This document shows, one piece after another, positions 34,522 to 37,248 of a stretch of 64,000 nucleotides of DNA (within the stretch, counting starts at the first letter, position 1; the number at the start of each line of letters is the position of its first letter). The translations under genes and the position numbers were made by a program. The stretch comes from Candidatus Eiseniibacteriota bacterium. GTDB taxonomy: Bacteria; Eisenbacteria; RBG-16-71-46. Below the pieces are notes generated by a model. It searched no databases, was not told the origin of the DNA, and saw only the letters and a program-made list of their open reading frames with translations. Location of the stretch: contig OY970342.1 in NCBI GenBank assembly GCA_963717505.1, positions 1,088,001-1,152,000 on the forward strand. The letters run 5' to 3'.

Positions 34522-34902
34522 CTAGGGATTGGGGTCTTCGGGTTCATGGTCCTGGGTCTTCATCTCGTCCAGCAGGGAATCGAGGCGCCGGTAGGTTTCC
34601 TCCCAATACTGCCGGTACGCCTCCAGCCATCCGCTGGCGGCCCCGAGGGGCCGCGCCTTGAGCCGGCAGGGCCGGCGCTGCGCATCGCGTCGGCGGGTGA
34701 TCAGCCCGGCGCGCTCGAGGACCTTCAGGTGCTTGGAAATCGCCGGCTGGCTCATCGAGAAGGGCTCGGCCAGCTCAGTCACCGACGCCTCACCAGCCGC
34801 CAGCCGGGCCAGGATCGCGCGGCGCGTGGGATCGGCGAGGGCCGCGAAGGTGGCGTCAAGGTCGGGCTCCTTTGTCTCATAACCAATCGCTTTAGTAACC
34901 AT
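34522..34902 (-). CDS. ArsR/SmtB family transcriptional regulator
   Basis: FAALADPTRRAIL, SQPAISKHLKVLERAGLI. Confidence 0.92.
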   Translation of the reverse strand: MVTKAIGYETKEPDLDATFAALADPTRRAILARLAAGEASVTELAEPFSMSQPAISKHLKVLERAGLITRRRDAQRRPCRLKARPLGAASGWLEAYRQYWEETYRRLDSLLDEMKTQDHEPEDPNP

Positions 34903-34937
34903 ACGGTTATGTTAGTGTGGGCCCGCACGCACGTCAA
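34896..34937 (-). promoter_or_regulatory. Leaderless sigma70 promoter with palindromic operator over the ArsR start
   Basis: Minus strand TTGACG-N17-TAACAT-N6-ATG; palindrome TAACC-N4-GGTTA at 34896-34909. Confidence 0.65.
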
Positions 34938-35091
34938 CGGATATTTCAAGGCGTGGCCTCTCTAGACCTGCTCAACTCCCTCTCGTTCGGCCAGGCAGCT
35001 CGTGCAAGACGCTGCAAGCGACACGCTGCTGCGTGGCAAATCGCTGCCTTTCAGCCGCTTGAGAGGCCGGCATCGGCCGGAAATTTTCCAC

Positions 35092-35120
35092 TGGCATAGG
35101 CCCCGGCACGCTGCGACAAT
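35092..35120 (+). promoter_or_regulatory. Promoter for the candidate ncRNA
   Basis: TGGCAT-N17-GACAAT with extended -10 TG. Confidence 0.5.
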
Positions 35121-35124
35121 CACT

Positions 35125-35305
35125 TGGCGCTTCGGCGTACGGGGACCGCCTCCGGGAACAGGACTTGCGAAAGTCCAACCGGAAGGTGGCCGGCGAGACC
35201 GGCCCCCCGAGATCAAGAGCCGTCGGAGGCTCAGTAAAGAGAGGGTCCCGCGAGACCCCTGACCACCGGCGGGATGGAAGGCGAACGATCGGGCACCAAG
35301 CGCCA
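35125..35305 (+). ncRNA. Candidate structured non-coding RNA, family unassigned
   Basis: Closing stem TGGCGCTT/AAGCGCCA and at least four internal hairpins; promoter upstream and terminator downstream. Confidence 0.55.
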
Positions 35306-35358
35306 CGGGTTCGCTTCTCCCTCTTGAACGCGGACGTGCTCGTCCGCGGCAACGGGAT

Positions 35359-35389
35359 CGCCCGGTCCAACGGCCGGGCGCTTTCGTTT
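35359..35389 (+). terminator. Rho-independent terminator
   Basis: CGCCCGGT/GCCGGGCG stem followed by CTTTCGTTT. Confidence 0.65.
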
Positions 35390-35466
35390 GTCCTTCGATC
35401 GCCAACGACTGGAGCCTGAACGGCGGAGCTTGCGCCGCGCGCGCGGCCTTCCGCACAATCGCCCGG

Positions 35467-37248
35467 ATGCGACAGCTCAGGCTGGGTCTCGCCCAGCTCA
35501 ACCCGACGGTCGGCGACCTCGACGGCAACTTCGACCTCGCGGTGGCGACGCTGGACCGCGCCCGCACCCTCGGCGTCGACCTGATCGCGTTCCCGGAGAT
35601 GTTCATCACCGGCTATCCGCCCGAGGACCTGCTGCTCAAGCCCTCGTTCATCGAACGCGCGATCGAACGGACCCGCGATCTGCTGCCGCACACGCGTGGC
35701 CTCACCTGCATGATCGGAACCGTCGAACGCGACTTCGATCTCTACAACGCCGCCGCCGTCCTGCACGACGGCCAGTGGGCCGGCACCTATCGCAAGCGCT
35801 ACCTGCCCAATTACGGCGTGTTCGACGAGAACCGCTATTTCATGCCGGGCACGCGGAATCCGGTGTTCGTCCGCGGCGGCACCGCGATCGGCGTCAACAT
35901 TTGCGAGGACATCTGGTACCCGGGCGGCCCGGTCGAGGACCAGGTGCTGCGCGGCGGCGCCGAGATCGTCCTCAATCTGTCGGCGTCGCCCTATCACGCG
36001 GGCAAGGCTCAGCAGCGCCGGCGCATGTTGTGCACCCGCGCCGCCGACAACCTGGCGATCGTCTGCTATGTGAACCTGGTCGGCGCGCAGGACGAGATCG
36101 TCTACGACGGTTGCAGCCTGGTGGTCGACGAGCAAGGCCAGGTGCTGGCCGAGGGCCTGATGTTCGAGGACGATCTGGTGCTCGCCGACGTCGACCTCGA
36201 GGCGGTGTTCGGCGCGCGGCTCCACGATCCGCGCCTGCGCAAGGGCCGAGCACTCGAGTCCGGCGAGCAGGTGCCGAGGATCGATCTACCGCCGCTGGCC
36301 GCGGCGGGAGCCACCGCCCGGGTGGAAACCGGCGCCGGCGGCGTGGCGACTGCGGTGCAGAGCCTGCCCGCCGTCGAGCGGCGTACCGCGGTGGCCCTCG
36401 ATCCGCTGACCGAAGTCTATCGCGCCCTGGTGCTCGGCACCGGGGACTACGTGCGCAAGAACGGCTTCGACAAGGTGGTGCTCGGCCTCTCGGGAGGCAT
36501 CGACTCGTCCTTGTGCGCGTGTATCGCCGTCGACGCGATCGGCGCGGACCGGGTGGTCGGCGCGTTCATGCCGTCCCGCTACACGTCCGAGGCCTCGGCC
36601 GAGGACGCCGGTCTGCTGGCGCGCGCGCTCGGGGTGACCTACGACGTCATTCCGATCGAGCAGGTCTTCGAGACCTATTGCACGACCCTCGATCCGCACT
36701 TCAAGGGTCGGCCTCCGGACATCACCGAAGAAAATCTCCAGGCGCGCATTCGCGGCAATTATCTGATGGCCCTGTCGAACAAGTTCGGCTGGCTGGTGCT
36801 GACCACCGGCAACAAGAGCGAGGTCTCGGTCGGCTACACCACGCTCTATGGCGACAGCGCCGGCGGCTTCGCGGTGCTCAAGGACGTCTACAAGACCATG
36901 GTGTTCGAGCTGTCACGCTGGCGGAACGCGCGCGGCGGCCCTCCGCCGATCCCCGAACGCGTGCTGACCCGGCCGCCGACCGCGGAGCTGCGGGCCGGCC
37001 AGACCGACCAGGACACGCTGCCCGCCTACGATGTACTCGATCCGATCCTGCGCTTCTACGTCGAGGAGGACCGCTCGGTCGCCGAGATCACCGAGATGGG
37101 TTACGACGAAGCCTTGGTGCGCCGGGTGTTCCACATGGTCGACCAGGCCGAGTACAAGCGGCGCCAGAGCCCGCCCGGGGTCAAGATCACGCCGCGAGCG
37201 TTCGGCAAGGATCGCAGGCTGCCGATCACCAATCGCTGGCACGCGTAG
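35467..37248 (+). CDS. nadE: Glutamine-dependent NAD+ synthetase
   Basis: Nitrilase-fold N-domain (FPE, K, ICED) plus SGGIDS, ENLQARIRG, TGNKSE, TLYGD, EYKRRQ. Confidence 0.95.
   Translation: MRQLRLGLAQLNPTVGDLDGNFDLAVATLDRARTLGVDLIAFPEMFITGYPPEDLLLKPSFIERAIERTRDLLPHTRGLTCMIGTVERDFDLYNAAAVLHDGQWAGTYRKRYLPNYGVFDENRYFMPGTRNPVFVRGGTAIGVNICEDIWYPGGPVEDQVLRGGAEIVLNLSASPYHAGKAQQRRRMLCTRAADNLAIVCYVNLVGAQDEIVYDGCSLVVDEQGQVLAEGLMFEDDLVLADVDLEAVFGARLHDPRLRKGRALESGEQVPRIDLPPLAAAGATARVETGAGGVATAVQSLPAVERRTAVALDPLTEVYRALVLGTGDYVRKNGFDKVVLGLSGGIDSSLCACIAVDAIGADRVVGAFMPSRYTSEASAEDAGLLARALGVTYDVIPIEQVFETYCTTLDPHFKGRPPDITEENLQARIRGNYLMALSNKFGWLVLTTGNKSEVSVGYTTLYGDSAGGFAVLKDVYKTMVFELSRWRNARGGPPPIPERVLTRPPTAELRAGQTDQDTLPAYDVLDPILRFYVEEDRSVAEITEMGYDEALVRRVFHMVDQAEYKRRQSPPGVKITPRAFGKDRRLPITNRWHA

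Follow-up and report, generated by a model that had tools for sequence, protein, structure and literature searches.

A probable free-standing structured RNA gene next to nadE in one family of Candidatus Eisenbacteria

Does the structured RNA that lies in front of nadE in Candidatus Eisenbacteria serve that gene as a leader, or is it a gene of its own? The question was raised by a stretch of 64,000 nucleotides (nt) of contig OY970342.1 (hereafter the window), in which the sequence places a 564-bp spacer between a divergent ArsR-family gene (34522-34902, - strand) and nadE (35467-37248, + strand), whose product is the glutamine-dependent NAD+ synthetase (Pfam CN_hydrolase, 2.8e-34; NAD_synthase, 8.1e-75). 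An earlier interpretation made from the letters of the window, referred to here as the sequence-only reading, had proposed either a stand-alone noncoding RNA (a divergent 6S RNA or a new class) or a terminator-type riboswitch for NAD synthesis. Our analysis indicates that positions 35126-35389 (+ strand) are probably a free-standing gene for a stable, highly structured RNA of approximately 264 nt that belongs to an undescribed family, most probably a new class of small RNA that stands alone, and neither a nadE riboswitch nor 6S RNA. We prefer the stand-alone reading because nearly all nadE genes compared have a promoter-like box of their own without a Shine-Dalgarno-like motif, and because in at least five loci the RNA is separated from nadE by a convergent gene. 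Covariation, the lack of an Rfam match and RNA-library contigs confined to the element agree with it.

Ends, fold and covariation of the RNA

The predicted transcription signals and ends of the element were as follows.

35080-35089, + strand: A/T-rich tract directly 5′ of the -35 box, putatively UP-element-like
35092-35097, + strand: -35 box TGGCAT (family consensus TTGGCA; tTgg kept at the same spacing in relatives)
35115-35120, + strand: -10 box GACAAT, separated from the -35 box by a 17-nt spacer, with TG at 35112-35113
35126-35389, + strand: the RNA itself, approximately 264 nt, bounded by the predicted start and the last base of the terminator U-tract
35351-35389, + strand: intrinsic terminator, in which AACGGGA (35351-35357) pairs with UUUCGUU (35382-35388) and lengthens the G+C stem 35359-35367/35372-35380

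The promoter named in the sequence-only reading, TGGCAT-N17-(TG)-GACAAT, is of the sigma-70 type; it was present and was conserved in 57 aligned homologous upstream regions, which keep the A/T-rich tract (A+T approximately 0.6-0.8 in the six best columns, in surrounding DNA of approximately 65-70% G+C), a TTGG-type -35 box, a (G)ACAAT -10 box and TT(A/G) at the predicted start. The ACAAT core, also found in the 57-sequence consensus, had A2, A4 and A5 invariant and C3 and T6 conserved in at least 90% of 21 sequences. The case for the RNA promoter was made from this conservation and not from a consensus scan, and the start at 35126 was placed from the -10 spacing together with the conserved TT(A/G). 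The intrinsic terminator was likewise found, was reported by a terminator scan (hairpin 35359-35380 with nine pairs, eight of them G-C, followed by CUUUCGUUU to 35389) and was conserved in homologues. The view that no credible open reading frame (ORF) overlaps the element also held. Of 720 runs of insertions or deletions relative to the window copy, 614 had lengths that three does not divide, and the element was therefore considered noncoding; stop-free reading frames carry no information at this G+C content.

The + strand of 35120-35395 had a folding energy of -140 kcal/mol (z = -3.42; equalled by 1 of 200 shuffles), and the - strand gave z = -1.93. The overall layout comprised two three-way junctions, one hairpin and the terminator, with approximately 90 conserved base pairs in the two junction domains.

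35127-35138, + strand: small 5′ hairpin GGCG-CUUC-GGCGU in the minimum free energy (MFE) fold, copy-specific and missing from most relatives
35140-35209, + strand: 5′ domain, a three-way junction of P1 (35140-35144/35205-35209), P2 (35148-35155/35179-35187) and the P3 hairpin (35188-35204, loop CGAGA)
35155-35168, + strand: conserved motif at the P2 tip, here GGAACAGGACUUGC, family consensus GGAACGGGACUUGC
35213-35327, + strand: central domain, a second three-way junction, closed by UCAAGAG (35213-35219) and CUCUUGA (35321-35327)
35220-35272, + strand: central-domain arm 1, with bulge GUAAAG (35234-35239) and hairpin 35243-35258 with a CGAGA-type loop
35276-35320, + strand: central-domain arm 2, with tip GGC-ACCAAGC-GCC and loop ACCAAGC (35295-35301)
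35329-35348, + strand: hairpin CGCGGACG-UGCU-CGUCCGCG, with compensatory change in eight of eight pairs and two length variants in the family

Covariation among homologues, which had been proposed as a check, was strong when compensatory changes were counted against shuffled alignments. The plain MAFFT alignment (A2; full length, 60 rows, structure from RNAalifold run on the same alignment) showed compensatory change in 46 of 70 pairs, compared with 27.8 ± 2.0 in shuffles and 23-33 with slid partners. The corresponding counts were 41 of 57 pairs in alignment A4 (64 distinct rows; shuffles, 23.8 ± 1.9; slid partners, 15-23) and 30 of 34 pairs in alignment A7 of the 5′ domain (shuffles, 22.5 ± 1.5; slid partners, 18-23), both of which were fitted to covariance models and lean towards those models. 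All seven pairs of the central closing helix in A4 and five of the six pairs of the P3 hairpin changed in a compensatory manner. In an alignment-free comparison, cognate strands paired better than non-cognate strands for P1 (-9.2 vs. -6.1 kcal/mol) and for P2 (-10.5 vs. -8.4 kcal/mol), with 0 of 2000 permutations as low in either case, a result inflated by the relatedness of the sequences. At the P2 tip, GG and GC were invariant and CUU was at least 90% conserved (60 sequences); this GGAAC..CUUGC motif pairs locally in different ways between subgroups.

The two parts of the RNA were modelled separately, the 3′ part by covariance model R1 (181 positions) and the 5′ part by R2 (99 positions), and neither model spans the whole RNA. 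R2, seeded with 22 similar copies, placed the 5′ domain correctly in 41 of 65 loci (E ≤ 0.01), of which 14 were outside the seed (L056, L107, L093, L007, L078, L117, L116, L017, L091, L069, L009, L019, L010 and L011). At this threshold R2 missed the window copy, so that its 5′ junction rests on its own MFE fold.

Comparison with 60-79 homologues upheld most of the pairings of the sequence-only reading. Its CGGGG/CCCCG pairing corresponds to P1, its CCGCC/GGUGG and UCCGG/CCGGA pairings together correspond to P2, and its hairpins at 35188-35204, 35243-35258 and 35329-35348 were supported. The hairpin at 35217-35232 was replaced in the consensus by the covarying UCAAGAG/CUCUUGA helix that closes the central domain. 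Two further elements proved to be features of the window copy. The GCGA-loop hairpin (35161-35176) is a local, copy-specific extension at the place where relatives have the conserved P2-tip motif. The 8-bp closing stem (35125-35132/35298-35305) is a perfect duplex in the window copy but was not conserved among 60 homologues, whose cognate duplexes between the 5′ end and the loop (-7.35 kcal/mol) were no better than non-cognate ones (-7.45 kcal/mol; 1325 of 2000 permutations as low). An all-against-all scan of column pairs gave mostly G-U noise, with no convincing pseudoknot or antiterminator. A kissing contact between CUUG of the P2 tip and CAAG of the ACCAAGC loop was considered and rejected, given that the divergent copies L020, L043 and L110 alter one side only.

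Distribution and presence in RNA libraries

Within Candidatus Eisenbacteria, the GTDB family of the window's own genome is referred to as f1, and f2 and f3 are other families (f3 being called the sister family). A blastn search with 35100-35395 gave matches in 21 of 24 f1 genomes (68-80% identity over 80-310 nt; up to 86% for shorter matches). Outside f1 it returned short weak matches only, and it found no second copy in the window genome (G000, one contig of 4.16 Mb). A terminator-derived pattern returned 89 stretches in genome contigs. With a profile built on the first alignment, 129 loci yielded 79 full-length copies, of which 61 were distinct. For a census with R1, 150 other genomes were drawn evenly from the phylum (59 from f1 and 91 from 16 other families). 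R1 matched 57 of the 59 f1 genomes and gave one match in G000; the two f1 genomes that did not match were 83% and 92% complete. The 91 genomes of the 16 other families yielded one weak match (29.7 bits), a figure to be read with the fact that R1, trained on f1 alone and with the terminator included, could miss distant relatives.

Most sequence titles name Candidatus Eisenbacteria; the few naming other phyla were taken as unreliable because the sequences were identical to f1 loci (for example, L103 to L002 and L054 to L141). Approximately two dozen pattern matches, mycobacterial and others, were rejected as homologues: nhmmer found no homology, and they are ordinary terminators that share a common design only. 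The mycobacterial terminators (ACGGGAAAGCCCGG..CCGGGCUUUUUCGU, with the U-tract paired back) lie directly after a gene ending in ...GGMGGMDF, presumably a GroEL-like tail (loci include L037, L050, L052, L053, L055, L060, L062, L065, L068 and L101).

Traces of the element were found in soil and estuary RNA libraries. A run index listed 12 holders from four studies, ten of them recorded as RNA, each with 7-12% of the sampled words of a 1.8-kb stretch. Four of the 12 runs, which represent three or four studies, were aligned to this stretch as assembled contigs.

X1: contig of 240 nt, window 35147-35386, 0 differences
X5: contig of 177 nt, window 35133-35309, 0 differences
X6: contig of 177 nt, window 35133-35309, 0 differences
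X7: contig of 211 nt, window 35177-35387, 1 difference

No part of these contigs falls outside the predicted RNA; two of them stop within the terminator U-tract (35386 and 35387). Across the 1.8-kb stretch, no contig of at least 99% identity from the four runs reached the ArsR-like gene or nadE, although the absence of coverage over the ArsR-like gene and most of nadE is not evidence of silence. The other contig matches were two 35-nt pieces at 90-95% within nadE, from contigs of other organisms. The contigs show that the element is present in RNA libraries, and they fit a short abundant transcript without proving one.

Relation to nadE and rival explanations

The sequence-only reading had asked whether homologues always precede NAD genes. 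In 51 of 61 copies, nadE was found 3′ of the RNA on the same strand; two loci had too little sequence, which leaves 51 of 59 informative loci. In the remaining eight loci, at least 1478 nt of sequence beside the intact RNA contain no nadE. Where nadE is missing, the genes 3′ of the RNA include TetR with a LolA-like gene, a DUF3857 gene, a convergent TPR gene (L019) and a convergent chorismate-binding gene (L020). The gene 5′ of the RNA varies as well: a major facilitator superfamily (MFS) transporter in 31 loci, an ABC-2 permease in 20 loci and ArsR/AHSA1 in the window (the Pfam assignments were checked on five MFS and four ABC-2 permease representatives). In the window, the sole match to the sigma-70 consensus within 34700-35700 was TTGACG-N17-TAACAT on the - strand (34909-34937); it lies just 5′ of the ArsR-family gene and is probably the promoter of that gene.

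The gene nadE carries a promoter-like box of its own.

35430-35459, + strand: nadE promoter-like box, TTGCGC (35430-35435), 18-nt spacer, CACAAT (35454-35459), 7 nt to the ATG

A box of the form TTGC..N16-19..NANNNT was found 6-10 nt 5′ of the ATG in 49 of 50 loci, at distances between RNA and nadE that ranged from 49 to 818 nt. With the loci right-aligned at the ATG, its consensus was cTTGCGc, the spacer and CACAAT, CACACT or CAGACT. A Shine-Dalgarno-like motif 5′ of nadE was found in 0 of the 50 loci. Thus, as the sequence-only reading had supposed, the nadE mRNA in f1 appears, from these motifs, to be leaderless or nearly so and to have its own promoter. In addition, L011, L049 and L093 (more weakly L002) and L080/L081 have a conserved ORF of approximately 130-230 aa, read from the opposite strand, in the gap that separates the RNA from nadE. 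This inserted ORF, which has no Pfam match, occupies long gaps between RNA and nadE, and the RNA is intact there.

Several observations weigh against a stand-alone RNA. The link to nadE may be tighter than plain synteny would give, because nadE follows in 51 of 59 loci despite the varied upstream neighbours. Second copies of the RNA in three metagenome-assembled genomes each precede nadE or a nadE-like gene; in one of these genomes, the nadE -10 box begins 5 nt past the RNA terminator. In f3, a different conserved noncoding element with a terminator precedes nadE. The near-invariance of the RNA terminator (10 of 15 pairs without any variation in 64 distinct sequences) exceeds what a mere terminator would need, but it looks inflated, because 60 loci were gathered with the terminator-derived pattern; the census of 59 family genomes limits this bias, yet the model used there includes the terminator too. 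A simple sigma-70 consensus scan flagged neither the RNA promoter nor the nadE box, and both promoters are predictions. As to expression, which had also been proposed as a check, the assembled contigs place the element in RNA libraries but show neither strand, true ends nor level; the X5 and X6 contigs are identical and possibly come from one data set, and X7 is possibly DNA. Finally, the trans-acting mechanism is inferred. The facts that tie the RNA to nadE keep a functional link alive without restoring a leader model for f1.

A cis-acting leader would be a terminator-type riboswitch, or a protein-responsive or RNA-responsive attenuator, that senses a signal of the NAD pathway and sets read-through into nadE, the read-through adding to nadE's own promoter or interfering with it. 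It would agree with the nadE neighbour kept through at least three upstream contexts, with the second copies, with the unusually constrained terminator and with the f3 element, and its architecture, two junction domains followed by a terminator, resembles that of tandem-aptamer riboswitches. Nevertheless, we consider this explanation, and with it the NAD riboswitch of the sequence-only reading, improbable. Given the box at the ATG and the lack of Shine-Dalgarno-like motifs, a read-through transcript would carry an untranslatable-looking leader. At least five loci have a convergent gene that separates the RNA from nadE, and eight lack nadE; the RNA is intact in all of them. The column-pair scan showed no conserved antiterminator; it gave short matches that tolerate G-U, such as UCUUG/CGGGA, whose two partners are invariant, so that covariation carries no information on them. 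All helices are mutually compatible in the MFE fold. The model of the NAD+-I riboswitch had no match at the element and, as a weak indication, the RNA-library contigs stop at the terminator. About equally unlikely is a free-standing sensor of NAD synthesis, that is, a riboswitch-like separate transcript that would bind an NAD-pathway metabolite or NadE and act in trans, or through its own transcription on the adjacent nadE promoter. Such a sensor would account for the lasting association of the RNA with nadE, in second copies as well as under different upstream neighbours, for the other terminator-bearing RNA before nadE in f3 and for the frozen terminator sequence.

A small RNA that pairs with mRNAs in trans would use the invariant unpaired GUAAAGA, CCAAGCGCC or GGAACGG as its seed and its fold mainly for stability. 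The predicted promoter and terminator, the single copy, the presence in RNA libraries and the invariant unpaired motifs of 6-10 nt are compatible with this explanation, to which we give little credence, since the two junction domains together conserve approximately 90 pairs, far more structure than is usual for seed-type small RNAs. Least probable is a sponge that sequesters CsrA/RsmA in the manner of CsrB/RsmZ. CsrA (PF02599) is encoded in G000 (91.4 bits, C1:3982879-3983037, - strand) and in three of four other genomes tested, and the element has conserved ACGGGA and UCGGAA motifs, one of which adjoins the terminator. However, GGA occurs at a median of 7 per 275 nt (range 4-11), which is about the estimated chance for the base composition, and several GGA motifs lie within conserved helices rather than in hairpin loops. 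The sponge was rejected on this count and placement.

The element that precedes nadE in f3 consists of a sigma-54-like -24/-12 box (CTGGCACG-N4-YKGC), approximately 180 nt with repeated CA(C/G)GGA(A/U)G motifs, and a terminator. It was found in 7 of 10 f3 genomes (6 of 9 without G026), and nadE follows 90-130 nt after its terminator, led there by a Shine-Dalgarno motif.

Loci L167-L172 and L160 (genomes G028, G031, G035, G032, G034, G037 and G030); for example, L161:3364-3560, - strand: f3 element

This element has no Rfam match and is not recognised by R1. Its homology to the f1 RNA was considered and not shown (R1 gave at most 11 bits there, and MAFFT no convincing alignment). Possible roles for it are those of a CsrA-type sponge and of a leader under nitrogen control. 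In f2, nadE comes directly after another ORF; in the f2 genome G025, the cspA thermoregulator model gave a match below threshold (33.5 bits against a gathering score of 78) approximately 2 kb from nadE (L165:3369-3623, - strand). In G102, a second, divergent copy of the f1 RNA (L178, G102:C5:11500-16500; 93.7 bits) is followed by a fragmented nadE-like gene, which aligns in several pieces in different frames at 35-49% identity, with a short C-terminal piece at 88%. The latter gene may be a decaying duplicate, or its contig may derive from another population in the bin.

A stand-alone RNA, which we prefer, would be made independently of nadE and would act in trans as a folded particle. With the terminator U-tract paired onto AACGGGA, the RNA would end in a long, nearly blunt 3′ hairpin, and because of this hairpin it would be expected to resist exonucleases; the RNA would also be strongly expressed and compactly folded. 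So much conserved structure, together with the A-rich bulge and the two GNRA-like loops, points to a defined tertiary fold that exposes a few invariant motifs, as is typical of RNAs that bind proteins or ligands and not of small RNAs acting through a seed. The binding surface would be formed by the invariant unpaired motifs, namely GGAAC..CUUGC at the P2 tip, the GUAAAG bulge, the (A/C)CAAG loop and two YGNGA loops. By analogy with 6S, Y or Csr-type RNAs, a stand-alone RNA could bind a protein as a scaffold or decoy, a role we propose tentatively and hold at rather less than an even chance; mRNA base-pairing or small-molecule binding is less likely. The constant place 5′ of nadE would then reflect conserved gene order, possibly with shared regulation, and not the relation of a leader to its mRNA.

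A link to nadE that is tight yet apparently not that of a leader is unusual, and it can be tested as an instance either of gene order kept around a stable RNA gene or of a new coupling of RNA to NAD synthesis. Eisenbacteria are known from metagenomes only, and we know of no work on their RNA biology. The class is well defined, with clear ends, approximately 90 pairs supported by covariation, near-universal presence in one family and traces in RNA libraries. An RNA with this much structure usually has a protein or ligand as its partner or is itself a catalyst, which makes the element a concrete, culture-free target for biochemistry and structure determination.

Comparison with known RNA families

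A cmscan search of the whole window against Rfam 15, the check proposed with the sequence-only reading, gave no match at gathering score anywhere in the window, in agreement with its statement that no familiar consensus fits. A permissive scan of 34850-35550 had a best E-value of 1.3, on terminator-like pieces only. The small signal recognition particle RNA (78 bits), RNase P RNA (275.1 bits) and transfer-messenger RNA (178.8 bits) were found elsewhere in G000 above their cut-offs and had no match at the element, and all three were rejected as identities for it. The suggestion of a divergent 6S RNA is refuted, since G000 has a bona fide 6S RNA elsewhere (C1:3533382-3533604; 66.9 bits, above the cut-off); in 34850-35550, no 6S match was obtained at E ≤ 10. 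The nadA motif (NAD+-I riboswitch, RF03013) likewise had no match at the element at E ≤ 10; across G000, its two best matches, of 20.4 and 19 bits, lay away from the element and fell short of the 37.5-bit cut-off.

Full-text literature searches, the scope of which excluded supplementary motif lists (for example, that of the 2017 "224 candidate RNAs" paper), returned no description of such an RNA. The queries Eisenbacteria with riboswitch and "nadE motif" had no match, and the match for Eisenbacteria with noncoding RNA was, in the portion available, an unrelated soil-assembly paper. In the parts available, nadE was named only as one neighbour of the M23 motif (PMC5737381). In the available portions of two preprints from 2026 that deal with intergenic features, no gene nadE is named, and the one checked for Eisenbacteria does not mention them.

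The element resembles 6S RNA (RF00013) in being a stand-alone structured RNA of approximately 200-260 nt with its own predicted promoter, next to one housekeeping gene. The 6S RNA is abundant, and its gene ssrS adjoins ygfA in many proteobacteria. In contrast to the element, which has two three-way junctions and two 3′ hairpins, 6S RNA is a long bulged hairpin with a large central bubble that mimics an open promoter; a genome usually has one or two 6S RNAs. The NAD+ riboswitches (class I, the nadA motif, which binds the ADP moiety of NAD+, and class II, the pnuC motif) are similar in being two-domain structured RNAs 5′ of an NAD biosynthesis gene and followed by an intrinsic terminator, whereas here the downstream gene has its own promoter-like box at the ATG and the RNA persists without an adjacent nadE. 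The tandem glycine riboswitch is alike in architecture only, with two three-way-junction domains in series and then a terminator; the domains of the element differ from each other and have neither the glycine-riboswitch consensus nor an Rfam match. The orphan structured RNAs (the raiA motif, OLE and ROOL/GOLLD) share with the element a restriction to certain lineages, heavy pairing, covariation, a single copy and evidence of expression. The element is smaller than OLE, ROOL and GOLLD, it has no similarity to any of these families in Rfam 15 and its range, one family of one candidate phylum, is much narrower. Judged by its sequence and structure, it is a new RNA family, and it belongs to a general kind, the lineage-restricted orphan structured RNA, that is already familiar.

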